Of a stretch of 29,094 bases of DNA, positions 448 through 27,786 are shown piece by piece (position 1 is the first letter of the stretch; every line of letters starts with the position of its first letter). The notes beneath the pieces are model-generated. The model ran no database searches. It was not told the origin of the DNA and saw only the letters and a list, made by a program, of their open reading frames with translations. A program made the position numbers and the translations under genes. Where the stretch lies: IMG/VR virus record IMGVR_UViG_2778261543_000004, positions 1 to 29,094 of that record; one strand, 5' to 3'. The stretch comes from a virus (Duplodnaviria; Heunggongvirae; Uroviricota; Caudoviricetes).

Positions 448-966
448 GTGATGAAATTTAAAAAATGTCTTCTGCCTGTGGCAATGTTAGCGTCATTCAC
501 TCTGGCAGGATGCCAGTCAAATGCTGACGATCATGCCGCCGATGTTTATCAAACCGATCAACTGAATACCAAACAAGAAACTAAAACCGTTAATATTATT
601 TCCATTCTTCCCGCAAAAGTTGCCGTAGACAACTCCCAAAATAAACGGAACGCACAAGCCTTCGGCGCGCTTATTGGCGCAGTCGCTGGCGGTGTTATCG
701 GCCACAACGTCGGTTCTGGCAGCAATTCCGGAACGACGGCAGGGGCAGTTGGCGGCGGAGCTGTAGGCGCGGCAGTGGGTTCTATGGTGAATGATAAAAC
801 CTTAGTGGAAGGTGTTTCTTTAACATATAAGGAAGGCACCAAAGTGTATACCTCTACCCAGGTGGGTAAAGAGTGCCAGTTTACGACAGGTTTAGCCGTT
901 GTTATTACCACAACGTATAACGAAACGCGTATTCAGCCAAATACTAAATGTCCTGAAAAGAGCTAA
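448..966 (+). CDS. yfgH: Outer-membrane lipoprotein with glycine-zipper segment (YfgH-like)
   Basis: Signal peptide plus lipobox LAGC|Q at the N-terminus; Gly/Ala-rich glycine-zipper stretch (GALIGAVAGGVIGHNVG...GAVGGGAVGAAVG); AAGGA RBS upstream. Symbol assigned from recalled size (172 aa), architecture and the adjacent 179-aa gene, not from an alignment. Confidence 0.75.
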   Translation: MMKFKKCLLPVAMLASFTLAGCQSNADDHAADVYQTDQLNTKQETKTVNIISILPAKVAVDNSQNKRNAQAFGALIGAVAGGVIGHNVGSGSNSGTTAGAVGGGAVGAAVGSMVNDKTLVEGVSLTYKEGTKVYTSTQVGKECQFTTGLAVVITTTYNETRIQPNTKCPEKS

Positions 967-981: not shown

Positions 982-1521
982 ATGAAGAAAGTTTTTCTTT
1001 GCGCCATCTTGGCCTCCTTAAGCTATCCGGCTATCGCCTCATCATTGCAGGATCAACTCTCTGCTGTAGCAGAAGCTGAACAGCAAGGTAAAAATGAAGA
1101 GCAAAGGCAGCATGACGAATGGGTCGCGGAGCGCAACAGGGAAATCCAGCAAGAGAAGCAACGTCGCGCAAATGCCCAGGCCGCCGCTAACAAAAGAGCG
1201 GCAACGGCAGCGGCAAATAAGAAAGCTCGTCAGGATAAACTGGACGCCGAAGCCTCTGCGGACAAAAAACGCGATCAAAGTTATGAAGATGAGCTACGCA
1301 GCTTAGAGATTCAGAAACAAAAACTGGCGCTGGCAAAAGAAGAAGCCCGCGTTAAGCGAGAAAACGAATTTATCGATCAGGAACTGAAGCACAAAGCTGC
1401 GCAAACCGATGTGGTGCAATCTGAAGCTGACGCCAACAGAAATATGACTGAAGGCGGTCGCGATCTGATGAAAAGCGTGGGCAAAGCAGAAGAGAACAAA
1501 TCGGACAGCTGGTTTAATTAA
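982..1521 (+). CDS. yfgI: Secreted highly charged coiled-coil protein (YfgI-like)
   Basis: Strong RBS AGGAGG 6 nt before the ATG; cleavable signal peptide (MKKVFLCAILASLSYPAIA|SS); K/E/Q/A-rich mature region; followed by an intrinsic terminator. Symbol tentative, based on size (179 aa) and pairing with the upstream lipoprotein. Confidence 0.7.
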   Translation: MKKVFLCAILASLSYPAIASSLQDQLSAVAEAEQQGKNEEQRQHDEWVAERNREIQQEKQRRANAQAAANKRAATAAANKKARQDKLDAEASADKKRDQSYEDELRSLEIQKQKLALAKEEARVKRENEFIDQELKHKAAQTDVVQSEADANRNMTEGGRDLMKSVGKAEENKSDSWFN

Positions 1522-3585: not shown

Positions 3586-3641
3586 AACCATATGTGGTTT
3601 AATTATGATCGGAATGCTCTTAACGAAATTACCTTACGGGT
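3586..3641 (-). promoter_or_regulatory. Late-operon upstream element, copy C (ATTACCTTACGGGT plus AACCATATGTGGTT)
   Basis: Third copy of the bipartite motif also found upstream of the tailspike and portal operons; lies between the acetyltransferase terminator and the lysis operon start. Confidence 0.45.
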
Positions 3642-3666
3642 ATTAAAAAGCCCACCTGAGTGGGCT
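3641..3666 (-). terminator. Rho-independent terminator after the acetyltransferase moron
   Basis: Hairpin AGCCCAC-ctga-GTGGGCT followed on the - strand by TTTTTAATA. Confidence 0.7.
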
Positions 3667-3670
3667 TCTA

Positions 3671-4659
3671 TTACTTGGTTAAGCTTGCTGGCAGGTGGCT
3701 TTTAATTATGTTTTTACCGATGAACACTGACCCTTCATCAGTAGGGTGACCGTAATCCATGGACATAAGCGTAAAGCCACTATCTACCCTTGACCTACAC
3801 TTCAGTTCTGTACCTTCACGTGCACACAAGCCATCAAGTATGTCGACAAAATCATATCCTTCATTGTCTTTTGATATCGTCTTCATTTTGTTATTTGTCG
3901 CGACAATCTGTTTATCCAAAAATCTGTTATCAATGTAAATATCATTGGGATTATAGTTTTTCGCAACAATAAGCGGCAGGCTCCCTTTCCACTGAGGAAC
4001 AGGACCAAGGACTATAACTTTTTTAACACCCAGTGCGTGTATTTTTTCAGCAATATCTTGCCAGTCTGTTTCTTCATGCTGGAATCTCTGAGCTAATACC
4101 ACAACATCAGGTTTAACAATATTTATATCTTCAATGGCTTTTTCATTGGATAGATTACATCCAATTGTGGCACTTATAACTCCAGGGAATTTATGGAGAC
4201 TCGGTTTACAACTTGAAGCAGCAAGTTGATAGAATGGAACGCCATCTTTTAGAAGTGATCTTATCCCTAAAGAAAGTGCTCCCGCGTGAGAGTCTCCCCA
4301 TAAGAAGACACCTCCCCTTTTATCAGTATCGACACATGATTTATCGATATGATCCAGTTTTTCACTGCTGTTACATTTATCCCACATCCCATTATTATCA
4401 AACCGATATCCATCGTAATGCACCACAGTTTCATTACCGGTAGTTTTTGTGATACTTCGCATATCAGTGTTAGCGCCATTAGAAATATATATACCAACAG
4501 CTAAAGCTAATGATGCAAAGTACAGAAACTCCTTTTTAACGCCGCCTCTACTTTTGAAAACACTTTCTATATATTTAAATGACAACATACCCATCGCCAC
4601 TGACGCAACAATTCCAATGAGCGTTGTTAATATAGAAACACCACCATATGTATTATATA
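3671..4659 (-). CDS. O-antigen acetyltransferase, C-terminal SGNH-hydrolase fragment (frameshifted)
   Basis: Last AT3 helix (GGVSILTTLIGIVASVAMGMLSF) followed by an SGNH/GDSL-like domain (GVFLWGDSHAGALS...); upstream of ~4660 this frame is not meaningful, so it is the downstream half of a split gene. Confidence 0.7.
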
Positions 4660-5528
4660 TATAGATAGATCGGCCAGTGCCACAAATAAATTGAATATGA
4701 ATACAACCCAATCTTTTGCGCAAAAGATGAATCTAAGATAATGTTATCAGAACACGACCACAATATGATCATCGTGCCGATGATAGGCAGCAGCGCATTG
4801 TAGCTAGGCCAGTACGATTCCTCGCTAAAAATAAAGCAGGATACTAATATGGTAGCAATCCCGATATATGGGAAAGGTTTTCGTTTAAATATTGATGTCG
4901 GGAAAAGATAAACCACGCCGCCAGCAATCATCTCCCATGCCCTTGTTGGAAGCAAGAAATATGATGAGCTAACTAAAATCCTAGATGCATAAATGCTAAG
5001 TGCTAAACTTAATAGGCCTGCAATCAGAATTAATATCCTAGATACCTTTAAACTGAAAGCCTTTCTGATAATATAAATGGCTAAAGGATATATAATATAG
5101 AATTGCCATTCTACAGATAGAGACCAAGTATGAAGTAACCACTTCTCTTCTGCACCAGGAGCAAAGTAGCTTGACTCCTTCCAATAGACGATATTTGAAA
5201 CAAATAGAAGGCTTGACGCAGCGTGCTTCGCCAATGTCTTAAATTCAGGAGTGTACATGTTGTACCATCCGTATACCATTACGCAAATTAGCATAACGGC
5301 AAGCGCAGGCACTATCCTTCTGGCTCGTGCTTTATAAAAGCCCCACAGAGAAAATTTATTTCCTTCTAATCCGCCAAATATTATTGACGTCATCAAAAAA
5401 CCAGAAATTACAAAGAATACATCTACGCCAACAAATCCACTCGGGACCCATCCTCTGTTGAAGTGGAACAGGACTACAGCAAGAACTGCTATAGCCCTGA
5501 CTCCATTGATATCCTTCCTGAAGTCCAT
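4653..5528 (-). CDS. O-antigen acetyltransferase, N-terminal acyltransferase-3 membrane fragment (frameshifted)
   Basis: Typical AT3 N-terminus (RAIAVLAVVLFHF...GFVGVDVFFVISGFLMT) and multiple transmembrane helices, ending ...YLWHWPIYLYI at a stop inside a (TA)5 tract. Confidence 0.75.
   Translation of the reverse strand: MDFRKDINGVRAIAVLAVVLFHFNRGWVPSGFVGVDVFFVISGFLMTSIIFGGLEGNKFSLWGFYKARARRIVPALAVMLICVMVYGWYNMYTPEFKTLAKHAASSLLFVSNIVYWKESSYFAPGAEEKWLLHTWSLSVEWQFYIIYPLAIYIIRKAFSLKVSRILILIAGLLSLALSIYASRILVSSSYFLLPTRAWEMIAGGVVYLFPTSIFKRKPFPYIGIATILVSCFIFSEESYWPSYNALLPIIGTMIILWSCSDNIILDSSFAQKIGLYSYSIYLWHWPIYLYI
4655..4663. repeat. (TA)n dinucleotide tract at the acetyltransferase frameshift
   Basis: ATATATATA at the junction of the two acetyltransferase reading frames; adding one TA unit fuses them into a single ~619-aa ORF. 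Confidence 0.8.
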
Positions 5529-5625: not shown

Positions 5626-7920
5626 TTACGCTATCACTTTAAGTGTGAGTTTGTACATCAGGCTTACACCGGTTGCTGATATCGGCGTCTGCAGTACCAC
5701 CGCTGTGTTGCTTGCTGATACCACTGCTAATGGAGCGCTTGATCCAGCTGAAGATTGCGAGCTTGCCACGACATGCGCAGTGTAGTCATCGATTCTAAAT
5801 CCTGTTGGGGCGTCGAGTTGCACCCTGCCATCGCCAGCATTGATAACTTTTGTTTGCCATGCGTTATGCCTGCTATATCCGTTGCGTATGTAGTCGTACG
5901 TCTCATTGGCCTTCATGTATCTTTCCATATACATGCAACCAATAGATTCAATGCACTGATAGTTTGCTGGAGCCAGCTTAAGGTTGGTTGATGCTCCGCC
6001 AAGTCTTGAAGCACCCCCAAGATGCATTCCGCATTGCTCGAACGTGATCTTCGAGGATGGGTCTACAGTAACTACGTATGGTGCAAAGGTGCTATCTGTA
6101 TACTTTGAAAGAACAGGCGCATAGTGTTTTACCGATATGTTACTAAACTGACCGACGTATATTAAGCTTCGATTTGAAGATGCAATAGCTGTCTCATCGG
6201 CAGCACCCATAAGAGTTCTCATCACCTTAGCAACGCCTTGAGTTCCAAGCCCCTTGATTAATACACCATCAGTGGAGTCTTGGAGATAATGAAGCTTAAA
6301 TTCTGCTTCAACGCTACCGATGCAATTAATATGGGCACCTTCCCACGCTTCTATCCCCATATCAAATGTTACGTTACTGCACGTATCAAGCGTAATGCCC
6401 ATTGCTGTTTCATTTACACTGTCGTAGTTGCCGTACTGCGCAAGCGCTCCTTCAAACCAACCGTGGAATTTTGCATAATTACAGTTCTTCAGATAGATGG
6501 GGAATGGGGTATGATCCGCCTGAAGTTCAATATGATGTGATGTAGTTGAGCCTCCAACCGTGTCCTTTTCCGGTGATAAGCTTACGGCGTCAAAGTAAAC
6601 GCCCTTGTGGCAAGAATCAAATCTAATAATCCCTTGCGTTCCCCACGCGCTGTATCCAAAACATGCATATTCAGCACCAAACATGCTCACATCCAAATTT
6701 GCTTTTATAGCCATATTTAGGTGTAAAGCAATGGTGCCAAGTCCTTTACTTGCAACATGCCTTGCGGTGTCCCACTTAAAGGTTAATCCCTTAATGGTCA
6801 AATCCCTAAATGCAGAGTCAGAGCTACCAGCTTCATCAGAATCCATAACTCTGCCAATGCATAGCTGCCCGAATTGATAGCTCGAAGAATTGCTAGGGAC
6901 AGATCTAATAAACCCAGTGGTAAAGTCAAAACCTCCTAGAGGCGGTGCGATCCAGGCTGATTTTTGTCCGAATTCTAAATAATCAGTACTCCCAAAGTGA
7001 TACATCTTATTTTTTTTAACATTGATTTGGCACTTCCCTCTGGCATAGTTCTCAGCCGCCTGGCAAGCTGCCCAATCGATGGTCTGAGTTAATGATGTTA
7101 CGAACGGGTATACGGCCTGGGCAGCGGACAGTGTAAGGTATCGCTCAGATAAAGGATGGGCGGTACCGTCCCCGATCGCCCCAAACTGCTCGGGAGTAAC
7201 GTAGATCAACAGTTGAGAAAGGTTTCCCTGAGGCTGCACACCAATAAGCGTCGGCCCGGTTGGCTTTGCCAGTTCAACAAAAACATCTGTTGCCGATCCA
7301 GATGGTGGCATCGTTACATATGGATTGCCTGCGCTGTCGAACGCAATAATTTTGTTCGCCCTGGTCGCAGCATTCGGTAACGAAGGAATTGGTTCTGGAG
7401 TTCTGAGAGTGCGGCTAAGGTTAGAGCTGGCAACGCCATCAACATAATTTTTGGTCGCCGCGTCCTGAGGGTCCCGAGGGTCGCGCACATTCCTGATGTA
7501 GTTGTTTAGGGCATCGTACCAGTTGGCGATACTCGACGGCTTACGCAGCGCCAGGCGGAACATGCTGCCAACCTGCTGTATCAGCATCGTCAGTTTATCG
7601 AATGCGTCTTCATGCACCTCAGCGAAGAACTTACCCTGGTTGCGCAGATCGGTATCCTGCGTAACCGGTAGCTCTCTTGATATAGAGATCTGATAACCGT
7701 TGGCCAATGCCTTCGACAGTATTATATTACCGCCGCTATAGCCTCCCGCACCAGTGACTATGTAATCAGTATCAAGAATCAGCTCTGTGATGTTCTCGTT
7801 CAGGTCAACAACCTGCACTACTAAATCAGATTTCTGGAAAATCCTGAAGGTATAAGGGAATGTCGTTGTAACACCGTTACCGGTGTATTCGTTGTGGTCA
7901 ACTTCGGTTGAGACCGTCAT
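5626..7920 (-). CDS. Tailspike / receptor-binding protein with beta-helix depolymerase-like domain
   Basis: 764 aa; conserved podovirus tail-fibre N-terminal anchor (MTVSTEVDHNEYTGNGVTTTFPYTF...); central pectate-lyase-like motif (FGAIGDGTAHPLS...); position after the internal virion proteins as T7 gp17 / epsilon15 tailspike. Confidence 0.8.
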   Translation of the reverse strand: MTVSTEVDHNEYTGNGVTTTFPYTFRIFQKSDLVVQVVDLNENITELILDTDYIVTGAGGYSGGNIILSKALANGYQISISRELPVTQDTDLRNQGKFFAEVHEDAFDKLTMLIQQVGSMFRLALRKPSSIANWYDALNNYIRNVRDPRDPQDAATKNYVDGVASSNLSRTLRTPEPIPSLPNAATRANKIIAFDSAGNPYVTMPPSGSATDVFVELAKPTGPTLIGVQPQGNLSQLLIYVTPEQFGAIGDGTAHPLSERYLTLSAAQAVYPFVTSLTQTIDWAACQAAENYARGKCQINVKKNKMYHFGSTDYLEFGQKSAWIAPPLGGFDFTTGFIRSVPSNSSSYQFGQLCIGRVMDSDEAGSSDSAFRDLTIKGLTFKWDTARHVASKGLGTIALHLNMAIKANLDVSMFGAEYACFGYSAWGTQGIIRFDSCHKGVYFDAVSLSPEKDTVGGSTTSHHIELQADHTPFPIYLKNCNYAKFHGWFEGALAQYGNYDSVNETAMGITLDTCSNVTFDMGIEAWEGAHINCIGSVEAEFKLHYLQDSTDGVLIKGLGTQGVAKVMRTLMGAADETAIASSNRSLIYVGQFSNISVKHYAPVLSKYTDSTFAPYVVTVDPSSKITFEQCGMHLGGASRLGGASTNLKLAPANYQCIESIGCMYMERYMKANETYDYIRNGYSRHNAWQTKVINAGDGRVQLDAPTGFRIDDYTAHVVASSQSSAGSSAPLAVVSASNTAVVLQTPISATGVSLMYKLTLKVIA

Positions 7921-7972
7921 GTTAAATCTCCAGATAGTCGCAGCACCCGTTGCGCCGCATATCCGGTTATTC

Positions 7973-8037
7973 TATTACCTGAAAAACCATATATGGATAG
8001 ACAACCCATAAATACGAACAGATATTACCTTTCAGGT
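7973..8037 (-). promoter_or_regulatory. Late-operon upstream element, copy A (TATTACCT, CCATATATGG, TATTACCTTTCAGGT)
   Basis: 15-bp exact repeat TATTACCTTTCAGGT (8023-8037) shared with 24633-24647, plus perfect palindrome CCATATATGG (7987-7996); upstream of the tailspike start. Confidence 0.5.
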
Positions 8038-8076
8038 GATTCGCAAAACGTGCTGGATAGCAAATAAATTATTTGA

Positions 8077-8096
8077 TACTGTATATTTATACAGTT
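8077..8096 (+). promoter_or_regulatory. LexA operator (SOS box)
   Basis: TACTGTATATTTATACAGTT matches the LexA consensus TACTGTATATATATACAGTA (CTGT-N8-ACAG core); TTGATA -35-like hexamer overlaps its 5' edge; 20 bp upstream of the 8116 ATG. Confidence 0.8.
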
Positions 8097-8115
8097 ATTG
8101 CATGGAGAAGATAAG

Positions 8116-8373
8116 ATGCAGCAGTATCACTATCCACTGGAAGACGGATTTACCGAAAGGATTCACACGCCGGGAGGCGTCAGATCACTGGTGGAGGGAT
8201 CGCACTTGATGAAATTACTCCGGGAGCTCGATAAGGATGGATTTAATGTCGATGGCCCACTTGCCGAACTGACTGCACTGATTAACTACGTCACCAGCTC
8301 ACAGATGTCTATGCGGGATCTGCAAACACATCTCGACTATTGTGCCGAACAATTACGAAAACAAACCACATAA
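8116..8373 (+). CDS. SOS-regulated small hypothetical protein (moron in late region)
   Basis: 85-aa ORF from ATG 8116 with GGAG RBS 8 nt upstream, directly behind the LexA box; opposite strand to the flanking structural genes. No recognisable family; not DinI-like by eye. Confidence 0.65.
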   Translation: MQQYHYPLEDGFTERIHTPGGVRSLVEGSHLMKLLRELDKDGFNVDGPLAELTALINYVTSSQMSMRDLQTHLDYCAEQLRKQTT

Positions 8374-8379
8374 AGAAAA

Positions 8380-8408
8380 GGCCGCTAGAGCGGCCTGTGA
8401 CATGTCAC
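8380..8408. terminator. Hairpin plus GTGACATGTCAC palindrome between convergent genes
   Basis: GGCCGC-taga-GCGGCC hairpin (8380-8395) adjacent to GTGACATGTCAC (8397-8408); T-tract lies on the - strand (TTTTCTTTAT), so it best terminates the - strand small ORF. Confidence 0.65.
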
Positions 8409-8415
8409 GCTCACG

Positions 8416-8556
8416 TTATGACAAGCCTATGTACCCTGCTACACCAGATAATATCAAAATAACTGCAACAGCAAATTCACCATCACCAATGATACATTTA
8501 CGGTTCATAACGCCAAGTGCAATAAGCGCAAACACAACAAGAATAAAAGCAATCAT
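8416..8556 (-). CDS. Small two-helix membrane peptide (46 aa)
   Basis: ATG at 8556 with AAGGA RBS; translation MIAFILVVFALIALGVMNRKCIIGDGEFAVAVILILSGVAGYIGLS verified by hand; followed by palindrome and terminator. Below the 60-aa ORF-track cutoff. Confidence 0.45.
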   Translation of the reverse strand: MIAFILVVFALIALGVMNRKCIIGDGEFAVAVILILSGVAGYIGLS

Positions 8557-8628
8557 TTCTCATCCTTATTGCGGAGTGACATCCTGCGGTCGCCACCAGT
8601 ATGTCTGGTTAAACTCTTTCTTCGAACG

Positions 8629-11040
8629 TTACTCCATTTTACGCAAATAACCTGGTGAAAAATACTCCTGCATCTGGTTAAATATCATATGATCGAGAGC
8701 CGCCTTCAAGTACCAGAGATTCGCACCTGGCATCAGCCCCTTCCCCAGCTTAACCATATCACCACCAGTCTGCTCATTCTTCCCTTCCACAGCATTTAAC
8801 GGTATGCCCTGAGCTATCTTAACGATATCATCAACAAGGCCTGCCACCGGACCAAGCATCGACGCCAGCGCGCCGCTTCCGTACCTAGTGTGATCTGACA
8901 ATAAAAAGTCACCGTAAAGGCCAAGACCACCACCTTTCAGTAGAGCACCAAGCCAAAATTTAGCAGCATCTTCTCCTGTCATCTCGCGAGGATTACGACC
9001 AGACGCAAGGTCGTTAAGTTGCTGCGACAAAGCGCCAAGAATGGTCGTACTGGCAATAAACGTCGCAATATATGCCGCACGCCCACCAGCAGACGGCATA
9101 CCCATAGCGCGTGACCAGTGACGCATAACCACCGAGATAGGGAACGATTTAAACAGGAAAACACTTCTCGTTAATTCACCCTTCCATGTTCCACGCTGAA
9201 TACCAGAACCGGTTATCAATTGCTCACGCGCGCCAGGTGTAATAACAGCCATATCAACTTCTTCAGTTACGGCACCGAGCAGTTTACGCATTGCCTCAAA
9301 TTTCACACGTTCAGGCTCACCAAGATGTTTAACTGCTGAATCAGGGATACGCATAATGCTTTCCGGTGTCAGCATCGTATTATTGCCGTTCCCCCAGTCC
9401 TCCTGTTGTGCCAGCTTCCATACGCTCCAGTCTGTTTCAGTAATCCCTTTGCTTTTCAGGATACGAAAATCAGAGTCATCGAGGCTACGAAGGTCTGGTG
9501 TCCGTGACACTACTTCTCCCAGGCTTCCCATCATTGTTACGCCATAGGCGCGCTTGTGCGCATCTGACCATGCTGTAAGTCCACTGGCACGCATTACCGC
9601 CGTTGCCGCCCAACGAGACACAGACGGCCCCATATTATCCATCGCCCAGCGGTTAACGCTGCCAAGTAGAGATTCCATCGCCAGACCAGCGCGGCGCGCC
9701 CGCGCAAGCTCAGTACGATTCGTTGGGTCCATAGCTTCAAGCTGGTTGCGAAATAACTGGTTCATTGGAAGGTTGGTAACCTTCGCAGACAGATACATGG
9801 TTCCAAGATCAGAGAACGATGACAGCAACGCGGATCCGAGTCTGCTGGCAACCAGCCAGTTGCGGATATTGTCAGACCATCGCGCGATGTGCGGATTCGC
9901 TACAGGCTGTGTCTTTCCGGAAATAAAGTTGTACAGATTCTCTGTGTTGTTCGCCAGCCGCTCGACTTTACCGGTTTTACTCGGGTTAGCTGTTGCCGTT
10001 TCTGCCTTAACCTGATCAAGAAGGGAGCGGAAAACATGATCGGGGTTTGGACCATATGTTTCCACCAGAGCAATATCTTTACTGATACCTTCCAGGTGAC
10101 CGACCATGATTTCCCATAGAGAGCGATCGCCATAAAGTTGTTGATATTGGAGATAGGAATCTGCATCTTTGAAATGTATCTGTCGTGATGCATTACCACG
10201 GTTAGCACGTGCGCCGGAAATTCGCATTCCTGTATCAGTAAGCTTATTCAGCCCACCAGTAGCGATCGTGTTATAAGCCTCTCCAAGAAATGCAGACAAC
10301 TCGGCATCGTTCATCAGTTGTCCATCGGCTCGGGTATAATATTTGCGATCCAGCTTACCTATAACATCGCTAACCCACTTATCCTTTGATACCGCCCCAA
10401 CCTTTTCCATAGAATGATGTTGAGGGATCCCCCAGTTTTCGAGATAGCCAATGTCCCCACCAGCATCATTAAACCGGCGGCGCAGCAGCTCTGTAACTTC
10501 TCTCCACGCCTTAGCACCTTTTCTTGCTTTAGCATTGCCAGTATTTTGCCCCCGCATTTCATATACCAGGTCACGTACGCCCGCTTCATCTTCAAACAGA
10601 CCAAAAAAGCGAGGATCAACTGCTTCGAATGCCTCCTGCAATTGACTCAATGCATAATCACGGGTAGCTTTTGTTCTGGATTCAACAGAGAGGAAATTAG
10701 ATTTACCGTCTGCATTAAAAGCTATAGTACGGTTAAGAGCGCCAAGTTTCCCATCAGCCCCTTGATAGCTATTGATAAATTTATCCAATCTCTGACGCGC
10801 GGCTATAGTGAGAGCCACACGACGTTTCTTTAATGTCGCTTCTCGCTGTAATTCTTCAGATGCCAATTGTGCTGCTCGATATAGCCGCTCTGATTCGGAA
10901 AGTTGTCGCCACGACATCGGGTCATCACGAGCAATGGAGCGCATATTTCGATAAATGCGGTCTTCAATGTTCTGTATTTCTCGCGCCGTTAACGTGCGCT
11001 GCGCCGCCTGCTGGACCGCTTGTATACATTCCTGTCTCAT
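8629..11040 (-). CDS. Internal virion / ejection protein (T7 gp16-like position)
   Basis: 803 aa; GAGAGG RBS; last large gene of the internal-protein block before the tailspike. Confidence 0.6.
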   Translation of the reverse strand: MRQECIQAVQQAAQRTLTAREIQNIEDRIYRNMRSIARDDPMSWRQLSESERLYRAAQLASEELQREATLKKRRVALTIAARQRLDKFINSYQGADGKLGALNRTIAFNADGKSNFLSVESRTKATRDYALSQLQEAFEAVDPRFFGLFEDEAGVRDLVYEMRGQNTGNAKARKGAKAWREVTELLRRRFNDAGGDIGYLENWGIPQHHSMEKVGAVSKDKWVSDVIGKLDRKYYTRADGQLMNDAELSAFLGEAYNTIATGGLNKLTDTGMRISGARANRGNASRQIHFKDADSYLQYQQLYGDRSLWEIMVGHLEGISKDIALVETYGPNPDHVFRSLLDQVKAETATANPSKTGKVERLANNTENLYNFISGKTQPVANPHIARWSDNIRNWLVASRLGSALLSSFSDLGTMYLSAKVTNLPMNQLFRNQLEAMDPTNRTELARARRAGLAMESLLGSVNRWAMDNMGPSVSRWAATAVMRASGLTAWSDAHKRAYGVTMMGSLGEVVSRTPDLRSLDDSDFRILKSKGITETDWSVWKLAQQEDWGNGNNTMLTPESIMRIPDSAVKHLGEPERVKFEAMRKLLGAVTEEVDMAVITPGAREQLITGSGIQRGTWKGELTRSVFLFKSFPISVVMRHWSRAMGMPSAGGRAAYIATFIASTTILGALSQQLNDLASGRNPREMTGEDAAKFWLGALLKGGGLGLYGDFLLSDHTRYGSGALASMLGPVAGLVDDIVKIAQGIPLNAVEGKNEQTGGDMVKLGKGLMPGANLWYLKAALDHMIFNQMQEYFSPGYLRKME

Positions 11041-11045
11041 TTAAT

Positions 11046-12848
11046 TTAACCTCTCAAGAAACACGCCACAGCGACATCAAACAGGCTGGAATCCTGTATT
11101 GCCTGCTCACTTTCCCTGTTCGCTTCGTCCAGTACTTCACGCGCACTGCGCGATTGTGGATTACCATCATCATCCAGCACGGTGATTATCATGTCAGGTG
11201 ATTCAAGCAGCGAGTCTTCAGCTATGCGCAGATCAATATCTCCTGCCTGATCTGACATCATTTTTTGTTCTGCCTGTTGCAATATTTTATCAGGCTCAAA
11301 AGGAGCTACTTCGTCTGGCGTCCTGACCTCTGCTGTTTTATAGAATGAAACAGCCTGAGCATTAAGTTCACTTTCTGCCTGCTGTCTCCGAGCCAGTTCT
11401 GCTCGAGCTTCAAAAAACTGACCGCCAGGCTCGTGCGGTGCCAACGCGTTACGGGAAAATTCCAGGCGTTCTTGTGCCTGCCGGATTCGTTGATCAATAT
11501 CGCGAAGTCTGGCCTGTTTATCTGATCGAGCACGAGACAAAGCTTTACCGCTACCGGTTGGCTCTTCTGCAAGAATTTGTGCGCGCTGTTCAGTGAGATT
11601 TTCAATAATTCGTTGGCTATTAGCGATTTCAGACTGGTAAACCTGTCTATCGCCACGCGACAAAAGCTGCGCGGCCTGTTCTTCAAGCAACCGATTTTCT
11701 ATAGCGCGCGCCGTTACTCCATTATCTACAGATGACAGAGCCTCATTAACTGCCTGAGACAGCAGACTCTTGCGCCCAGGAATTTCACTGAAAGATGCAG
11801 ACTCAACAATGCTGGCAACGTCTACAGGTCTCCCCTGGCTAACATCAGACATGGCTTTTCGCAGAGCCTGAATGTGCGAATTACGCGAAAGCACGTTGAT
11901 CGGAACGCCGGGAGCAATATCAATTTCAGCATGATGAGCGGCATTCGCCGCCAGTGCAGCATCAATATCAACTGGTGAAAAATTTGGTGCGCTTGTAGAC
12001 TCGCCGCGAGAGTTAATAAATCTGCCGACACCACCAAACGCCACCCCAAGAACAGCATCAATAGCAATTGCCTGTCGATCCAACACATCATACTGGTTAG
12101 CCATTTCGCTATAGCCACCATCACGAAGTGTTTTTGCAGTAAGCCCACGCTGTGCCATACCGAACGCAATATTTGTACCTGCGGCATAGGCAATATCTGG
12201 CGTTGCACGTACTGCTGTTGCTGCGGCGCGTCGCACTGAACTCTCACCCGTCCGCGCAAGCTGAGCCGCCACACCTTCCGCCAGCGCACCACCAGCACGT
12301 AACCCGAGGCTCATAGGGATCAGCGTTCCGGCACCAGCAGTAATGCCCTGCACTAATCCCGCTTCCTGCGCCGTCCTGAAATCAACACCCTGTGCTGTCA
12401 GCCGTTCAAACTCAGAAAAACCCTGTAGCGAAGTTACCGCCGCTGCACCTCCGACAGGACCACCGAGCGTTGTACCGACAACAGCCTGCCCGCCCATATC
12501 GAACAACCCATAAAGAACCTGCCCAGCGGTTCCAGTTGTCGCGGCATCAGGCGTCAGCCGCTTAACCTGCTGCTCTGCTAGTTTTCTCTGCTCGGCAATG
12601 TATGAAACTGAAGTATCATTGAGCGAGGTGTTTTCGTTAACAAACTGAGCAATCGGGGATACGATTTTATCCATCCCTGCCCATAGCAACTGATCTGGCT
12701 TTGCCACCAGCCCGGAGTACAAACCAGACAATGCCGCTCCTACAGCATTGTCGAAAAAACCAACATCGCTGTTAAAGCCCGCTGGATTTGATGCTGCTTC
12801 GTCAAGTTGCTGATTCTGGTTTACTGGATTAAGGCCGAAGTAACTCAT
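11046..12848 (-). CDS. Internal virion protein (Gly/Ala-rich)
   Basis: 600 aa, Gly/Ala-rich N-terminal half and coiled-coil C-terminal half; start overlaps the upstream stop (ATGA). Confidence 0.6.
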   Translation of the reverse strand: MSYFGLNPVNQNQQLDEAASNPAGFNSDVGFFDNAVGAALSGLYSGLVAKPDQLLWAGMDKIVSPIAQFVNENTSLNDTSVSYIAEQRKLAEQQVKRLTPDAATTGTAGQVLYGLFDMGGQAVVGTTLGGPVGGAAAVTSLQGFSEFERLTAQGVDFRTAQEAGLVQGITAGAGTLIPMSLGLRAGGALAEGVAAQLARTGESSVRRAAATAVRATPDIAYAAGTNIAFGMAQRGLTAKTLRDGGYSEMANQYDVLDRQAIAIDAVLGVAFGGVGRFINSRGESTSAPNFSPVDIDAALAANAAHHAEIDIAPGVPINVLSRNSHIQALRKAMSDVSQGRPVDVASIVESASFSEIPGRKSLLSQAVNEALSSVDNGVTARAIENRLLEEQAAQLLSRGDRQVYQSEIANSQRIIENLTEQRAQILAEEPTGSGKALSRARSDKQARLRDIDQRIRQAQERLEFSRNALAPHEPGGQFFEARAELARRQQAESELNAQAVSFYKTAEVRTPDEVAPFEPDKILQQAEQKMMSDQAGDIDLRIAEDSLLESPDMIITVLDDDGNPQSRSAREVLDEANRESEQAIQDSSLFDVAVACFLRG

Positions 12849-15358
12849 TGCGGAATATCTCCGGAGAATCTCTGACGCTTCTGTGTCAGATCAAGAACAA
12901 CAGGAGAACCATCATCTTTCAGCAGATAACCAGTACCAAGTTTCACCAGGTACTGACTATCGCCGTAACTTTGCAAACCATACTGACCAGGCGGTGTTTT
13001 TATCCCGGTGCCGACAACTTGTTCATTCCAAGCCTGATTAACCTGCTTATCGAATTGCTCTGCAGACATTCCCCACGGCAAAAGGACATTCCCCATTCCG
13101 TTATAGTCATGCACGCCACCTGTAGCTACGTTAACAGCCTGTTTCCAGATATCAGTGTCAATTTCGCCTGATATCACGCCTTTTTTCGCCATCACACCAG
13201 CGTAATAGTCCTTTGCGATCTCGTATGCCATTGATGCCCCCTGAGCATCACCAGCAAATGCATCCTTCACCATGTCAGAAAACTCAAGGCGAAGATCAGC
13301 ATCTTTAGGCATCGGAATACCTTTCGCATCATCAGTACCTTTACGAGCCGCCGCGCCAGCAAGAATTGTCTGCGCAGCGGTTTCAGGAGACACGGAAACA
13401 TCAGGATTAAACCAGTTTTTTTCTGCCAAAATACCACCAGGCTTGTCCATCAGTATCCCGGCAATGGCAGCAGATGGAGCGTTGGCACTGATCTGCTGTA
13501 GTGCTGACATATACACCTGCCCACCACCAGTGCTCTGCCTGATGGTATCGAGATATGCTGCCTGTTGGGAAACTGGAGCATCACGAAAGAAAACACCGAT
13601 CTGATTGGCCTCGTCTTTGGAAAAGAACGTCAGTGGAGTGCCATATGACTTAGCAAGGTCACTTACCTGAGCGGCACGCAAGGCAACGCTCTGTCCAAAG
13701 TTATCCTTATTGCTCATGTCGATAGGCTTTGTCTGTCCGGAGGCAAGAGAGAACTGCACAGGATCCGACTGCCGCTGCTTTATCACCTGATTTGCAGCCG
13801 AAACAACGTTGTCATAAAGAGCTGCGCGTGCCGCATACCCCTCCCCTGTTTCACCAGTATCCGGGCGTAATTGCTCAACATATGCTGTAATGCTGCTTGT
13901 CGGCATGTTGCGGAAAGAGCCTATATACTGTCCGGCGATTTGCGTATTTCTGAACTCGGTATATCGCAGGTTTCCTTCTCTTACTCCATAAGCTGCAATA
14001 AAATCAGCCTCACCAGGTGGGTTAGGAAATTCAACGCCACGCATATACGCAGCTGTCGCATCGCGAACCTGGCTGTCAATCATCGTTTTATATTCAGCCT
14101 GCTGCTGCCGACGCAGTTGATCCGCCTGTCGCATAAAACTTGCCTGCGCCTCAGGAGATGCCGCATCGAATGCTGCATTACCGGTATAGCGTTTGGTGTT
14201 GGTTGGAATTGTTGATAAACCAAGTGCTGCACTGACACCAGCAGTTAACTGCTGATCACTGTATGGCTGGCTACCGTTCTCATGATGGATAATGGCTGCA
14301 CAAAGCGCCTTCAGGGTATCAGGATTAGATGCATCGAGAGGCTCATCAGCAGAAACGCCAAGTTGTTCGCACACTGCTTTGATATACGACATAGTGTCAT
14401 TTTTATCAGTAGGCGGTGCCCAGCGATTAATTATCTCGCTGACGGTATCAATACCCTGCCTCTGATACGACATCAGGTTCCGCCCTAATGCACGAATCCC
14501 GTGTTCAGGTGTTTCGAATTTAGCAAATCGACCATCATCACCGGTCTGGCCTACCCACGGATTATTTTTGCTGTATTCGAGATTTCCTGGGTTATTGTTG
14601 CGTATGCCGCGGGCACGCTCGGAAGAGTCACTATCTGCTACAGCACGGCGAGCTCCAGCAGCAGTATCACTTAACTCGCCATTACTTTGGATGAATGCGG
14701 TCGCATTGTTTGCCGACCACTGGGACAATGCAGCATCAGCAACCTTCTCTTTAAACTCGATTTTCTTGGCCTGGATTTGCTCGTTGCTCCAGCCATGTGC
14801 AATGCCGTAATCCTCAATTTGCTGGAAAGTTTGCTTGTTAGCCAATACGTATGCGGCGTTGTCGCCATACAATGCTGCGGCATTTTTACCATTGTTCAGC
14901 AGTGTCGCCTGAAACTGGCCTTCTTCGTAGGCATTAATTTGCCCTATCTCGTGTCGCCCGGCCTGCGTAGTGAACTGAATGCGCTGCTGCTGCGCCTGCC
15001 GCATGAAAGCATTACGAGCCTGTTCATCCGGCAGCGACATAGCCAGTTGTTCGACCTGAGCATCAAACTGCTGCGTATACTCCTGACCTTTTCCAATAGC
15101 ATTTTTCCCTTTCAGGTTAAGCAAACCTGTTTCAGGGTTATTCAGCAGATCGCTGCTTATCTGACTGAGGTTAAGAGATGCCTCCTGAGCCAGAGCGATA
15201 TTGGCACGCTGTTTTGCCTGACCAAAAACATCAATTGCTTCTGTCCCTGCCCGAACAAAAGCATCACCAATACCTGGCTGAGAAAACGTCTGCAAGCCTG
15301 CTGACTGAACTCCACGGCTCTCAACCTGACGTCCGGATACTGTTGGTACGACTGGCAT
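12845..15358 (-). CDS. Internal virion protein with putative peptidoglycan-hydrolase-like domain
   Basis: Likely start at ATG 15358 (MPVVPTV...) with GGAGGA RBS and TAATG overlap with the upstream gene; internal conserved-looking block RGIRNNNPGNLEYS...FETPEHGIRA; T7 gp15/16-like position. Confidence 0.6.
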   Translation of the reverse strand: MPVVPTVSGRQVESRGVQSAGLQTFSQPGIGDAFVRAGTEAIDVFGQAKQRANIALAQEASLNLSQISSDLLNNPETGLLNLKGKNAIGKGQEYTQQFDAQVEQLAMSLPDEQARNAFMRQAQQQRIQFTTQAGRHEIGQINAYEEGQFQATLLNNGKNAAALYGDNAAYVLANKQTFQQIEDYGIAHGWSNEQIQAKKIEFKEKVADAALSQWSANNATAFIQSNGELSDTAAGARRAVADSDSSERARGIRNNNPGNLEYSKNNPWVGQTGDDGRFAKFETPEHGIRALGRNLMSYQRQGIDTVSEIINRWAPPTDKNDTMSYIKAVCEQLGVSADEPLDASNPDTLKALCAAIIHHENGSQPYSDQQLTAGVSAALGLSTIPTNTKRYTGNAAFDAASPEAQASFMRQADQLRRQQQAEYKTMIDSQVRDATAAYMRGVEFPNPPGEADFIAAYGVREGNLRYTEFRNTQIAGQYIGSFRNMPTSSITAYVEQLRPDTGETGEGYAARAALYDNVVSAANQVIKQRQSDPVQFSLASGQTKPIDMSNKDNFGQSVALRAAQVSDLAKSYGTPLTFFSKDEANQIGVFFRDAPVSQQAAYLDTIRQSTGGGQVYMSALQQISANAPSAAIAGILMDKPGGILAEKNWFNPDVSVSPETAAQTILAGAAARKGTDDAKGIPMPKDADLRLEFSDMVKDAFAGDAQGASMAYEIAKDYYAGVMAKKGVISGEIDTDIWKQAVNVATGGVHDYNGMGNVLLPWGMSAEQFDKQVNQAWNEQVVGTGIKTPPGQYGLQSYGDSQYLVKLGTGYLLKDDGSPVVLDLTQKRQRFSGDIPQ

Positions 15359-15903
15359 TATAATCCTCCGGGTAATCTGGTTCCTGCTGCTGCCCCGATT
15401 GGCGCAGGGGTGCTTTGAGTAAACGGACTCCACGTCCCACCAAACATCTGGTACGCACCGTATGCCTTCAGAGGCGCAGTGAGCAATGTTGTTGCTGCTC
15501 CCACATTCCCCTGTTTACGGGCTGAACTGGCTTCTGCTTTATAGTTGGCAGCCTGAACCTGATAACCGTAAGCCTCGCGTTGCGCGTTATTCACCGTCGT
15601 CAGCGAATCAAGAGCGCCAAACTGGGCAGTGTCGCCAAATATATCCAGCGCGTTACCTGTAGATAAATCAGCGCCGGTAGCCCCCATTGTCGCCGCCTGT
15701 GTACCAAGCCGCTGTCGGGTCTCTCTGCGCCGTTGCTCAGCTTCAGCGTTACCTCTGTTTATTGCATCATTTGCCTGAGCTGTGGCTATATCTGCGTTCG
15801 CTTCTGCAACCTTCGAGGCATACTTTCCCTGTTGGTACTGGGTGTATGCCTGAATGCCACTCATGGCGAGCATTGCGCCACCAGCAATAACCGGATCGCA
15901 CAT
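15358..15903 (-). CDS. Internal virion protein (T7 gp14-like position)
   Basis: 181 aa, Ala/Gln-rich; overlapping start and stop with neighbours. Confidence 0.55.
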   Translation of the reverse strand: MCDPVIAGGAMLAMSGIQAYTQYQQGKYASKVAEANADIATAQANDAINRGNAEAEQRRRETRQRLGTQAATMGATGADLSTGNALDIFGDTAQFGALDSLTTVNNAQREAYGYQVQAANYKAEASSARKQGNVGAATTLLTAPLKAYGAYQMFGGTWSPFTQSTPAPIGAAAGTRLPGGL

Positions 15904-16367: not shown

Positions 16368-18838
16368 CAGAATCCCCCAACAGTAAGGCGAGGAATAACG
16401 GCAAGAACAGACAGCGGCAACGGGTCAAGCTGACGGATTCTTACACGTCCGTTTTTGCCCCAGTTACTGTCCAGTTTTACTTCTACTTTTCCGGTAGCGT
16501 CATCAACAGGATCATCGTAGAACTCGAATTCACGCTGTGGATATTCGTACCATTTACCGCCGGGCGTAGTCGCCCAGATGCCGCGGCTGGCATTCACAAC
16601 CAGAGTAACGGATGGGATCACCTGTTTTTTGTCCAGCAGCGTTTCCTGTCCGTTAATGTTGATATCCAGTGTTTCGAATTCAGCAGTTATTGGCAGGCCG
16701 ATGTGCACTACAGCCCCCGGAGATTCCAGCGTGACGGCACCTCCGGAAACCACTTTCTGTGGTTCCACGTTCGCATCAGAGAGAATGTTTACGGTCTGGC
16801 CTTCAAGATGAGACAGGCCTCCAAATGTCCGGCGCGCCATCTGCCAGTTCGTGGTGGCCACATTCCTGAGGGATGGCGGGACGTTCCTGTTAGCACGAAC
16901 CACTACAGCGGTATTGCTGGTTACAGAAATAATGTCGCAACGTAATTCTTTTGACACTTCATCGCCAGTATCAGGATCAGTTCCGGTATAAGGGAACTGT
17001 AGTTGAGCACCGACATCACTACTGGTGAAGTACGCACCACCAGAAATACTGATTGTATATTCCGCGCGGTAATCCCATTCGCCAGAACCACCAGTGATGG
17101 TCATCGTTCTGTCAGACGTATTTCTTCCATCATAGCTAAGGCCAGAATCAACAAAGAAAGCATCTTCATCGCTGGTAAATAAACGGCTGGACAGCCGCTC
17201 GATGTATCTCACTGTTTGCCCGTTAACGGTTCGGTTAACGACGAAATACACCGCATCTTCATTGCCTTCGCTGATACTGCATGTGCTTTCATATTTTCCG
17301 GTACTGGATTGTGGTGCCCATGCAAAAACCTGCTGATCACGCAAATAGGTCATCACCAGTAATTTACCGTCATCACGAATGCAGAAGGCACTGGAGTAAG
17401 GGACAATCGAGAAGCACCAGTCAACAATGCTGTGCTTCTGAAAAAGATGATTGGCAAGGATAGTAAGGTCGTTCCCCTGATATCCGTCAACATCGAATGA
17501 GTAGGCCAGATCACGTACAACACTGCCTTTCTCCTGGACGAACAGAGCAATATTCGCCACGGCAATTGGTGGGACATTGCTCGAGCCATTTGATCCCTGA
17601 GAGCTGAATGCAAATGATGATGGGGTTAACACTTTGTTCTGGTCGCCGGTGATGACGTACTCACCTCCGGAAGTCAGTGCCACCAGCGAACCGACATCAA
17701 TCAGGTGGCGGATCTCATTAACCTGACGCCCGGCATAGGTGTAGATAATTCTGTCGTCATCCTGCGTAGGATTGCTTTTGCCAAAATCCTTATAATCCCC
17801 AGTACGGCTGGCCCAGATAGTCTGAGGGAACGCTGTCGATGCGGCGAAGTAAAGACGTTGTTGATAATAAACAACCGTGCCAGGATAACCGTTAACACTG
17901 TTCCAGGCATATTTAGCCCATTTATAGCTGGCATTATCCTCGCCAACGACCTGCGAAGGGATATAGGAAATCACCTCAGCAGTTGCAGTAGTGCCATTTA
18001 CAGCAGTTATACGGGCAATGCCAAAACCACTGTGCAGATACTCCCACTCAATGCCAGTATCATCATCACCGGATCCGCCCCAGCCATCCCATGATGTGCC
18101 TTCTGTATGCGAAGGGCGCAAAGTGCCTGTTTTGCCTGCTGTAACGGCGCGATAGTAGTTACTGTCTGCACGGCGAATATCGCCAATCGACGTACTCTTA
18201 CTGGTTTCCCATACCGGCACAGAATCCACTGCAGGCTGTTCCAGATAGAACAATTTGCCTACCTGCTCCGCGCCAAAAATAGAGGCGCTTGCCGTTAACG
18301 TAATTGTCCCGGTGCTGGCGCTGGCATAAACCGTCACTGACTCATCAATATTGATATCTTCAAATGGCCCGTTCTTCGTTACCACATCAACCAGTTGCCA
18401 GTTGTCATGCGCATAGCGGCGCAGCTCTTTCGGCGGGTATGCCGGGTGAACCAGCGTAAGCACGTCGGCGCTTTGCGTGAATTTAATTCGGAACAGATCG
18501 GCTTCAGTATATGGCGTGGCAATTTCATAAATAACATTGCTGCTGTTCAGCACCAACGCACCATCTTTGATAACGCGCATGTACTGGTGTCCGAACTCCA
18601 GAGCATAGGTCTGAACCGTTGAGAACTGGAACGGGATCAGGCGGCATTTCCGATTTGGGTATTTGGCGGCACCGACAAAACGCGTACCAGGTCGATTCTC
18701 AACGCCGCCATACTGCCGCACGATAAAGTTATCGCACTTGCGCAATGCCACCTGGTACTTCGCCATGTCGATACGACCGTACAACGACGGTCCAATCTCA
18801 CCACCGGCAAAGCTGGGCTGTGTCCAACTGATAGCCAT
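16367..18838 (-). CDS. Tail tubular protein B-like (nozzle)
   Basis: 823 aa; N-terminal pattern (SFAGGEIGPSLYGRID...GVENRPGTRF) resembles T7 gp12-type proteins; follows the tail tubular A-like gene. Confidence 0.65.
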   Translation of the reverse strand: MAISWTQPSFAGGEIGPSLYGRIDMAKYQVALRKCDNFIVRQYGGVENRPGTRFVGAAKYPNRKCRLIPFQFSTVQTYALEFGHQYMRVIKDGALVLNSSNVIYEIATPYTEADLFRIKFTQSADVLTLVHPAYPPKELRRYAHDNWQLVDVVTKNGPFEDINIDESVTVYASASTGTITLTASASIFGAEQVGKLFYLEQPAVDSVPVWETSKSTSIGDIRRADSNYYRAVTAGKTGTLRPSHTEGTSWDGWGGSGDDDTGIEWEYLHSGFGIARITAVNGTTATAEVISYIPSQVVGEDNASYKWAKYAWNSVNGYPGTVVYYQQRLYFAASTAFPQTIWASRTGDYKDFGKSNPTQDDDRIIYTYAGRQVNEIRHLIDVGSLVALTSGGEYVITGDQNKVLTPSSFAFSSQGSNGSSNVPPIAVANIALFVQEKGSVVRDLAYSFDVDGYQGNDLTILANHLFQKHSIVDWCFSIVPYSSAFCIRDDGKLLVMTYLRDQQVFAWAPQSSTGKYESTCSISEGNEDAVYFVVNRTVNGQTVRYIERLSSRLFTSDEDAFFVDSGLSYDGRNTSDRTMTITGGSGEWDYRAEYTISISGGAYFTSSDVGAQLQFPYTGTDPDTGDEVSKELRCDIISVTSNTAVVVRANRNVPPSLRNVATTNWQMARRTFGGLSHLEGQTVNILSDANVEPQKVVSGGAVTLESPGAVVHIGLPITAEFETLDININGQETLLDKKQVIPSVTLVVNASRGIWATTPGGKWYEYPQREFEFYDDPVDDATGKVEVKLDSNWGKNGRVRIRQLDPLPLSVLAVIPRLTVGGF

Positions 18839-19446
18839 CAGGACAACCTCGCAATGGTAAACTCGTCAACCGGTGGCTGTGGTTCCTGTGATTCATTCTG
18901 GCTATGCGAGCCAGCACTAAGAATCACGCGATTGTACATATTGAGGGCAAACGTACCGAGGTCTGCATTCCCAGTCAGCGCCATGTTAATAGCTGCCGCA
19001 AGACGCCAGGCCAACGCCTCCATAAAAATGGCATCAAACATGTTCACATCTGTAACGCGAGAGACATACTTGAGCCATGCCTGCGGCTGGTCTGTGTAGA
19101 TCAACTTTCCTGTTCCGTTGGTGTCTGCACCAACTTCGTACTGAACGCGCATTGCTGCTGTTGGATTGCGTACACCAGGAAGCATAATTTCAGTAATGCG
19201 CAGACAATCGGACGGGTACTGGTACGCATATTCCCAGTCAGGCGGTGGATTGCTCGTATCTGCAAGCGCCACGCGTTTGGTAGCAAAGTTCCAGTCAAAA
19301 TCAGAAAGAACAGCATCACGGCAGGCCTCAAAGTGCAGCGAACATTCCCCCGCTTCCTTGCTGGCTTCCTTCAGGCTGTTAATGCTGCGGCTGTTGCCAA
19401 TATTGGACAGCGCACGATTACAGATCTCTACTACAGAGGCCATCAC
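18838..19446 (-). CDS. Tail tubular protein A-like (adaptor/gatekeeper)
   Basis: 202 aa, size and position equivalent to T7 gp11, immediately upstream of the gp12-like gene. Confidence 0.55.
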   Translation of the reverse strand: MMASVVEICNRALSNIGNSRSINSLKEASKEAGECSLHFEACRDAVLSDFDWNFATKRVALADTSNPPPDWEYAYQYPSDCLRITEIMLPGVRNPTAAMRVQYEVGADTNGTGKLIYTDQPQAWLKYVSRVTDVNMFDAIFMEALAWRLAAAINMALTGNADLGTFALNMYNRVILSAGSHSQNESQEPQPPVDEFTIARLS

Positions 19447-19772
19447 TCACCTCCGTTACCGTACAGAGTTTCAGCCGCTGATTTTTCTACATCCCTGGAA
19501 ACAGGAGCGATCGCCATATCAGTGATCTGCAGATCGGCGCTGCGATTAACACCATCGTCAGTTTCTCTGGCAGACAGGCCTCGAATAACAGCCTTTGCAG
19601 TTATCATCACTTCTGTTCCGACGCCCTGAGGTTGCGCCTTCAGCTTATTCAATGTGTCGTTATTAAGAGTGATGCACAGCCCCCACGGGTATTCATCGCG
19701 AGTTCTGGTTTCTCCGCTCTCATCCTGGTAGCTGTCAGTGCCGGTTTTGAGGTTTACGAGTTCCATATACAC
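19443..19772 (-). CDS. Hypothetical virion protein
   Basis: 109-aa ORF in the structural operon between capsid and tail tubular genes. Confidence 0.5.
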   Translation of the reverse strand: MYMELVNLKTGTDSYQDESGETRTRDEYPWGLCITLNNDTLNKLKAQPQGVGTEVMITAKAVIRGLSARETDDGVNRSADLQITDMAIAPVSRDVEKSAAETLYGNGGE

Positions 19773-19816
19773 TCCTGCAATAAAGGGGCCGAAGCCCCTT
19801 GTCTGATTCGCGAGGC

Positions 19817-20152
19817 TTACACGCCCAGTTCTTTACGCTTATCTGCGATCTTCTCGCGGAGCGTTTCGGCTTTGGCGTTATGGTGTGGCTTCTCGTTAAA
19901 GAGCAATTCGTACTCTTCACGGAGCTTATCCAGTTCACCATCATCTGACACATCGTTGATGATTTTGGTGCTGGTTGCTGCCATAGTCACCTTTCCTGCT
20001 ACCTTTGCTTTTGCCTGTCTGGCTGCATCGTTAACAGGTTCCAGTGCGCTACCAGGCTCACCTTCGTATTCGATTTCTGCCCCCTCCGGCCACAGTGTGT
20101 TATGGATATGAGAGAGGCGCAGAACGCGGTATCTTGGTTTCTCACCTGACAT
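19817..20152 (-). CDS. Hypothetical virion protein
   Basis: Likely start at ATG 20152 (MSGEKPRYRV...) with GGTGA RBS; the upstream codons of the listed ORF begin with GTG. Confidence 0.5.
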   Translation of the reverse strand: MSGEKPRYRVLRLSHIHNTLWPEGAEIEYEGEPGSALEPVNDAARQAKAKVAGKVTMAATSTKIINDVSDDGELDKLREEYELLFNEKPHHNAKAETLREKIADKRKELGV

Positions 20153-20162
20153 CGAAATCACC

Positions 20163-20600
20163 TTAACCAGTTACTTTTGAGCGGATCGGGTACGGTGTAT
20201 TGGCATCAACATCCAGACTAATACCCGCAGTGAATTTGCCGGCCGTTAGTGGGCCAGTTGCGACGGAGTAGTTAACACGCAGATATCGCTGAACACCGGC
20301 AGGCACCTTTGCAGAAACAACTCGTTTACCTGCTGTCAGGGCGGTCTTTGCCAGTGCACCACTATCATAAATAGTGGTCCATGAGCTGTTATTCTCACTC
20401 GTCTGCAACTGGATGTTTACAGTTGCCTCACCACTTGCCGTGGCGGCTTCGTTAACCAGCACCCAAAACTCAAGCGGGTAACCCACGCCGATATCACGAC
20501 GTTTTCCGTCAATTGGACCGAGATCGATTACGTCAGTAGAAGCCGCGGTATTCGTAACCGCCTGAGCTTCGGAGAACATCAACAGTTTGTCGGTGATCAT
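20163..20600 (-). CDS. Putative capsid decoration / minor capsid protein
   Basis: 145 aa, immediately downstream of the major capsid gene; beta-rich composition. Confidence 0.5.
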   Translation of the reverse strand: MITDKLLMFSEAQAVTNTAASTDVIDLGPIDGKRRDIGVGYPLEFWVLVNEAATASGEATVNIQLQTSENNSSWTTIYDSGALAKTALTAGKRVVSAKVPAGVQRYLRVNYSVATGPLTAGKFTAGISLDVDANTPYPIRSKVTG

Positions 20601-27777: not shown

Positions 27778-27786
27778 AACCACCAT

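Follow-up and report, generated by a model that had tools for sequence, protein, structure and literature searches.

The ant gene and the LexA box immediately upstream of it very probably constitute the SOS input of the lysis-lysogeny switch in an epsilon15/phiV10-like (Uetakevirus) prophage at the guaA-yfgI position of the E. coli chromosome. The locus is the E. coli orthologue of the Ant/Rep switch of Salmonella phage SPC32H, a system already known in genetics and crystal structure, and it introduces no new mechanism. That antirepression switch was reportedly described by Kim & Ryu in 2013 (J Virol) and by Kim et al. in 2016 (PNAS), with structures deposited as PDB 5D50 and 5D4Z. The DNA analysed here is a stretch of 29,094 nucleotides (the window), and our own evidence consists of the box and the gene, the gene's orthology to SPC32H ant and its shared map position, the retention of the box among relatives, and a Rep homologue encoded by a prophage nearly identical to this one. 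Feature coordinates are collected in Table 1.

Megablast of the region returned epsilon15/phiV10-like podophages of the genus Uetakevirus, and window positions 99-28233 were 97.8% identical to a prophage lying between guaA and yfgI in E. coli GPEC1405. The att core ATTGAGTGGGAATGATT was located at 1614-1630; this sequence is the published attachment site at the 3' end of guaA for phiV10, epsilon15 and ZX5 (PMC9782041). Positions 1-1613 are therefore host DNA, and the window beyond the att core represents the half of the prophage that encodes lysis, structural and packaging functions. An E. coli relative using the same att site, vB_EcoP_ZX5, is inducible by mitomycin C (PMC9782041). Two other features of the window were recorded. 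A tRNA-Arg gene (anticodon TCT; 24972-25048, + strand), the only Rfam match in the whole window, separates the terminase gene from the portal gene and is read against the direction of the structural genes; a tRNA-Arg is found in the corresponding region of SPC32H and the GPEC1405 prophage too. The O-antigen acyltransferase gene (AT3 and SGNH domains; 3671-5528, - strand) is broken into two overlapping ORFs because 2 bp are missing from a run of TA dinucleotides at about 4659-4660. Apart from this deletion, the 1993-bp alignment shows no mismatch to the GPEC1405 copy, an intact 619-aa CDS; the split could mean that the gene is a pseudogene, that the sequence contains an error, or that serotype conversion undergoes slipped-strand phase variation.

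The ant ORF extends from an ATG at 8116 to a stop codon at 8371-8373 (85 codons). A search of the PDB with the 85-aa protein identified a single entry, 5D50 chain E, 'Anti-repressor protein' (E 1.8e-47, residues 2-85), which tblastn showed to be the Ant of SPC32H. Identity of the window protein to SPC32H Ant was 88-89%, and the corresponding gene is labelled 'ant: anti-repressor protein' in KC911856. A match to phrog_450 (E 9e-48) was also obtained. Scans of the protein against Pfam, NCBIfam and PADLOC gave sub-threshold noise only, namely DUF724 (18 bits, cut-off 38) and UpsF (14 bits, cut-off 400), and inspection of the residues revealed no hydrophobic stretch. Gene order agrees as well: in SPC32H the tailspike gene is followed by ant on the opposite strand, a 46-aa membrane ORF and a large virion protein, as in the window, and blastn was colinear between SPC32H 16628-20678 and window 11414-7376. 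The ten genomes aligned, from phages of E. coli, Salmonella, Enterobacter and Klebsiella (nine Uetakevirus, one without genus assignment), all carry ant in the same slot, with products 63-98% identical to the window protein. Since the slot is occupied in all ten, ant is a core regulatory gene, and its reading in the initial annotation as a moron, or cargo gene, was rejected. The same annotation had guessed at an SOS-triggered, LexA-controlled antirepressor, which proved right in kind, the protein being an orthologue of SPC32H Ant with a LexA box at the homologous position; it had also correctly described an ORF with a good RBS (GGAG at 8104-8107, + strand) that runs against the tail and structural genes. 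The homology search that it proposed led to a known protein, and that protein is an antirepressor; with crystal structure 5D50 and published genetics for the family, the idea of an undescribed protein did not survive.

The sequence at 8077-8096 is TACTGTATATTTATACAGTT, which differs at two positions from the 20-nt LexA consensus TACTGTATATATATACAGTA. Allowing up to three mismatches, this was the sole match in the window, and none arose in 100 shuffles. The arms CTGT-N8-ACAG occur three times in the window, with an AT-rich centre in the 8077-8096 copy only. The initial annotation had suggested scoring the site with a position weight matrix; on a rough matrix built from 20 E. coli SOS boxes, the site scored 27.8 bits, higher than all training sites. 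The second-best site in the window scored 11.3 bits, while the per-shuffle maximum averaged 11.2 bits (200 shuffles). The claim of a near-consensus LexA box is therefore borne out. Its position just upstream of the ORF also stood, with a correction: the gap, given as 20 bp, measured 19 nt, and the ORF start, given as 8117, was one base off.

Conservation of the box was analysed at two scales. Across the ten-genome alignment of the tailspike-ant intergenic region, the box occupied the same columns in seven genomes, from E. coli, Salmonella and Enterobacter phages; in the three Klebsiella genomes the left arm is degenerate (ATGT for CTGT) and a one-base insertion is present. SPC32H and SPC32N differ at a single position across the aligned 219-bp region, where the CAG arm of the box has C in the former and A in the latter (TATACAG versus TATAAAG). 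Kim & Ryu (2013) reportedly found that one change in the LexA site made Ant constitutive and SPC32N lytic; the public sequences of the two phages agree with this account. At the closer scale, 80 loci that were 96-100% identical were recovered from IMG/VR, and the 79 with a recognisable start were counted. A LexA box scoring 24-28 bits was present 19-20 nt upstream of the ATG in 78 of the 79, with the CTGT and ACAG arms invariant and the centre variable; in the lone exception, the locus was apparently cut about 30 bases upstream of ant. Both the ant ORF and the box were under clear purifying selection in 78 of these 79 loci, which, being from close relatives only, demonstrate retention of the box but do not count as independent lineages or events.

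When the complete SPC32H, epsilon15 and TL-2011b genomes and a 48-kb stretch of GPEC1405 that contains the prophage were scanned, each had a single strong LexA site, the box upstream of ant. The exception was Klebsiella phage BUCT711, in which the whole-genome scan showed that the ant box is not the only strong site. Because its box is the only strong LexA site in the other genomes scanned, ant looks like the single SOS entry point of these phages. The BUCT711 sites lie at 382-401 and 17016-17035; the box upstream of its ant scored 18.8 bits, and the second box, TACTGTATATTTAAACAGTA, is strong (27.1 bits) and sits beside a 109-aa hypothetical ORF at the opposite end of the genome.

A consensus sigma-70 scan called no promoter at ant. 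Two putative core promoters were nonetheless assigned by inspection, the first helped by a CTGGA.A block that is invariant in the ten-genome alignment (Table 1). LexA would occlude either candidate, because the box overlaps the core promoter in both. The ant transcription start site was reportedly mapped by Kim & Ryu in 2013. Beyond the 3' end of ant, a GC-rich hairpin followed by a T-run on the - strand is predicted to end the virion-protein operon; at the matching position, a rho-independent terminator is entered in the epsilon15 record. Adjoining this hairpin is a perfect 12-bp palindrome, GTGACATGTCAC (8397-8408), between ant and the 46-aa ORF, and a search for inverted repeats near ant found weak pairs only. 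The 46-aa ORF itself is a conserved neighbour that follows immediately after the last of the big virion-protein genes, convergent with ant, and its SPC32H counterpart is labelled 'putative integral membrane protein'.

Table 1. Features of the ant locus and of the adjoining host DNA, in window coordinates.
Feature	Position	Strand	Evidence or remark
yfgH, outer-membrane lipoprotein, host	448-966		
yfgI, host	982-1521		
Tailspike	5626-7920	-	Flanks ant
17-bp palindrome ATTACCTTTCAGGTGAT, probable Rep operator	8024-8040	no strand	Intergenic, between ant and tailspike
Candidate ant promoter (-35 TGGATA 8054-8059, 17-nt spacer, -10 TACTGT 8077-8082)	8054-8082	+	Sequence and invariant CTGGA.A block
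Alternative candidate ant promoter	-35 TTGATA 8073-8078; -10 TATTGC 8096-8101	+	Read from sequence
Predicted LexA (SOS) box, putative operator of the ant promoter	8077-8096	no strand	Consensus match, PWM, alignment
RBS GGAGAAG	8104-8110	+	GGAG (8104-8107) invariant in 10/10 aligned genomes
ant, 85-aa antirepressor, SPC32H Ant orthologue	8116-8373	+	Matches to 5d50_E, phrog_450, KC911856
Hairpin GGCCGC-TAGA-GCGGCC, GC-rich, then T-run	8379-8396	-	Also marks the 3' end of ant
46-aa hydrophobic ORF	8416-8556	-	phrog_7892, E 2e-31
803-aa virion protein	8629-11040	-	
Large virion proteins	8629-15433	-	

The partner of Ant was sought in the window and in the near-identical prophage. Tblastn gave no significant match to Rep in the window, which does not reach as far as the immunity region. 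The expected cognate Rep, a two-HTH protein of about 198 aa with no RecA-dependent self-cleavage domain, could be assessed by proxy only, through the GPEC1405 prophage. This prophage encodes a 194-aa HTH homologue of Rep (11596-12180 in coordinates of the excerpt) that matched 5d50_A, 'Repressor', over its full length (E 1.9e-41) and contains HTH domains only, without a Peptidase_S24 domain, consistent with a repressor unable to cleave itself. The E. coli-type Rep (WP_000836290.1) likewise aligns with SPC32H Rep from end to end, the C-terminal domain of crystal structure 5D4Z being covered as well. Between the E. coli lineage and SPC32H, however, Ant is 89% and Rep only 43% identical, whereas between BUCT711 and SPC32H both values are 64%. 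This decoupled divergence suggests that the immunity module has been exchanged independently of ant, which would travel with the structural genes. In view of this gap, the pairing of Ant with Rep in the E. coli lineage is a putative one.

The 17-bp palindrome between ant and the tailspike gene is probably a Rep operator. The motif ATTACC-N5-GGTRAT was found at intergenic operon starts at 8024-8040, 3628-3644, 24634-24650, 27776-27792 and 27794-27810, and gave 13 strand-matches in the window versus 3.3 expected. SPC32H contains 40 strand-matches versus 4.2 expected (about 10-fold), flanking rep on both sides and at the syntenic operon starts, and the epsilon15 record labels such sites 'repressor; lysogeny'. 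The motif is common to lineages whose Reps are only 43% identical. If the palindrome is indeed the Rep operator, the ant/tailspike intergenic region may be under the control of Rep as well as LexA.

From the SPC32H literature, we infer that LexA control, the Ant-Rep interaction and tetramer disassembly also operate in the E. coli prophage. In the lysogen, host LexA bound at 8077-8096, overlapping the ant promoter, would keep ant silent. Upon DNA damage, active RecA would lead to self-cleavage of LexA and ant would be transcribed; the 85-aa Ant would then bind Rep, a two-HTH protein without a self-cleavage domain, and split its DNA-binding tetramer into dimers. Rep would leave its 17-bp ATTACC-N5-GGTAAT operators and the lytic genes would be switched on. 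For SPC32H, a passage in PMC7380047 states that self-cleavage of LexA leads to Ant synthesis and that Ant inhibits the repressor by protein-protein contact, and LexA is named as the DNA-damage sensor of SPC32H-type phages in a passage of PMC9437464. The portion of PMC9638917 that deals with the complex describes an Ant tetramer that binds two Rep dimers, breaking the Rep tetramer. The SPC32H genetics of Kim & Ryu 2013 are cited in passages of both PMC7380047 and PMC9437464.

It is also conceivable, though improbable, that Ant is LexA-controlled in the E. coli lineage but does not act, or does not act exclusively, on the resident Rep: it could target the repressors of other prophages in trans, a form of cross-talk like that of the Gifsy antirepressors, or be a partly redundant leftover beside Bro-N-Ant fusion proteins. 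The decoupled identities of Ant and Rep (89% and 43%, against 64% and 64% for BUCT711) point in this direction, and phiV10, TL-2011b and ZX5 carry a second, Bro-N gene, the Ant-like C-terminus of which is 40-43% identical where compared. Overexpression of the Bro-N protein of ZX5 promotes lysis (PMC9782041), and trans-acting antirepressors are documented in Salmonella (PMC3121763, PMC7380047). The prophage in the window, on the other hand, is without a Bro-N gene, so that ant is its only candidate SOS input. Moreover, box and ORF are retained under purifying selection, in 78 of the 79 close relatives, and the E. coli-type Rep aligns with SPC32H Rep throughout, 5D4Z domain included.

A different function for the protein was also weighed. 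Being small, LexA-controlled, prophage-borne and outside any curated Pfam or NCBIfam family, it might be taken for an SOS-induced toxin or an abortive-infection or defence factor, an alternative raised in the initial annotation. Support for it was lacking in PADLOC, Pfam and NCBIfam, none of which gave a hit; the protein is 88% identical to one solved in complex with its repressor, shows no visible hydrophobic segment, and is encoded at a core syntenic position in 10/10 aligned genomes rather than in a variable cargo slot. We regard a toxin or defence role as very improbable. Finally, the box is part of the 195 bp from which ant and the tailspike gene diverge, and could in principle mainly regulate the tailspike promoter, with the ORF incidental. 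The box is, however, 19 nt from the start codon of ant versus 157 nt from that of the tailspike gene, its spacing to the ant ATG is fixed at 19-20 nt in 78 relatives, and the ORF is strongly conserved; the chance that the tailspike gene is the main target appears close to negligible.

Within the preferred reading, in which Ant feeds the SOS signal to Rep, the decoupled divergence bears on the specificity of Ant, and is what this locus offers beyond annotation. A broader interpretation, which we advance tentatively and consider rather unlikely, is that the Ant fold is a broad-specificity module for repressor disassembly that reads the conserved architecture of the Rep tetramer and not an immunity-specific surface, with the Bro-N-Ant fusions as a second delivery form. 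It is suggested by the near constancy of Ant (89%) beside a Rep of 43% identity and by the occurrence of a module of about 75 Ant residues fused to Bro-N. If it were correct, one SOS-induced Ant could co-induce heteroimmune Uetakevirus prophages.

The main value of recognising ant is annotation, as it shows where the SOS signal enters to induce phiV10-like prophages, which include O157-converting phages and prophages of avian pathogenic (APEC) and Shiga-toxin-producing (STEC) strains. A query with window positions 7900-8650 matched 533 of 5426 complete E. coli genomes, some of which may omit ant, because the query also spans the conserved start of the tailspike gene. Among the 15 RefSeq matches listed, no feature was named antirepressor and nearly all were 'hypothetical protein'. 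Although its structure has been solved and its genetics published for a sister phage, the Ant family is not represented by any model in Pfam, NCBIfam or PADLOC. A literature search found no experimental work on the E. coli orthologue.

Antirepressors are known from several temperate phages. In the temperate podophage P22, the gene for Ant (immI region) is flanked by the ejection-protein genes on one side and the tailspike gene on the other; the protein, some 300 aa long, is regulated by Mnt, Arc and sar RNA, not by LexA. Its map position is analogous to that of the window ant, nothing more is shared, and no homology between the two proteins was detected; a P22 ant mutant is still SOS-inducible (PMC7380047). 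Tum of phage 186 and GfoA/GfhA of Gifsy-1/3 share only a regulatory logic with Ant: a small antirepressor, held back by LexA, inactivates a repressor that cannot be cleaved (PMC7380047). Their phages differ in type (Myoviridae and Siphoviridae), and no sequence similarity of Ant to Tum, GfoA or GfhA was detected with Pfam, NCBIfam or the PDB, where SPC32H Ant was the sole hit. SPC32H Ant is also reported by Kim & Ryu (2013) to be structurally distinct from the Tum and Gifsy antirepressors.

Closer relatives are found within the epsilon15/phiV10 group. In the type phages of the genus, gp19 of epsilon15 and p24 of phiV10 are the same gene as ant (86% and 96-98% identical, respectively), with the LexA box conserved, and both are labelled hypothetical in their records. 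Unlike the window, phiV10 has an extra Bro-N 'anti-immunity' gene downstream. In the Bro-N proteins (phrog_1760; TL-2011b AEW24558 and Tyrion gp20, the two covered by the comparison), Ant in its entirety corresponds to a homologous C-terminal part of some 75 residues (40-43% identity, E 1e-16 to 1e-20), and the N-terminus is a Bro-N domain (PF02498), to which Ant has no match. The Bro-N genes are, unlike ant, without a LexA box of their own. They sit downstream of ant in the same orientation, at 33420-34115 in TL-2011b, 618-1322 for Tyrion gp20 and from 1171 for phiV10 p23 (the last two in coordinates of the excerpts). ORF4 of vB_EcoP_ZX5 was described as a Bro-N 'anti-repressor' in a study that makes no reference to SPC32H (PMC9782041); among the E. 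coli Uetakevirus phages, it is the only 'anti-repressor' for which the literature search found a test.

The SPC32H switch remains the nearest known system, and those of its features that can be tested by sequence were all present here: Ant homology, a LexA box at the position mutated in SPC32N, and a syntenic slot on the opposite strand. Ant is orthologous (85 aa here versus 86 aa in SPC32H), the genus, gene order and orientation are equal, and the box falls at the equal aligned position, base for base. The near-identical GPEC1405 prophage has a Rep homologue, and the ATTACC-N5-GGTAAT palindrome occurs in the same intergenic regions. The two systems differ in that the host here is E. coli, with the prophage at guaA, in that Rep is only 43% identical between the E. 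coli lineage and SPC32H, and in that the window box is nearer to consensus than that of SPC32H (27.8 versus 25.4 bits).
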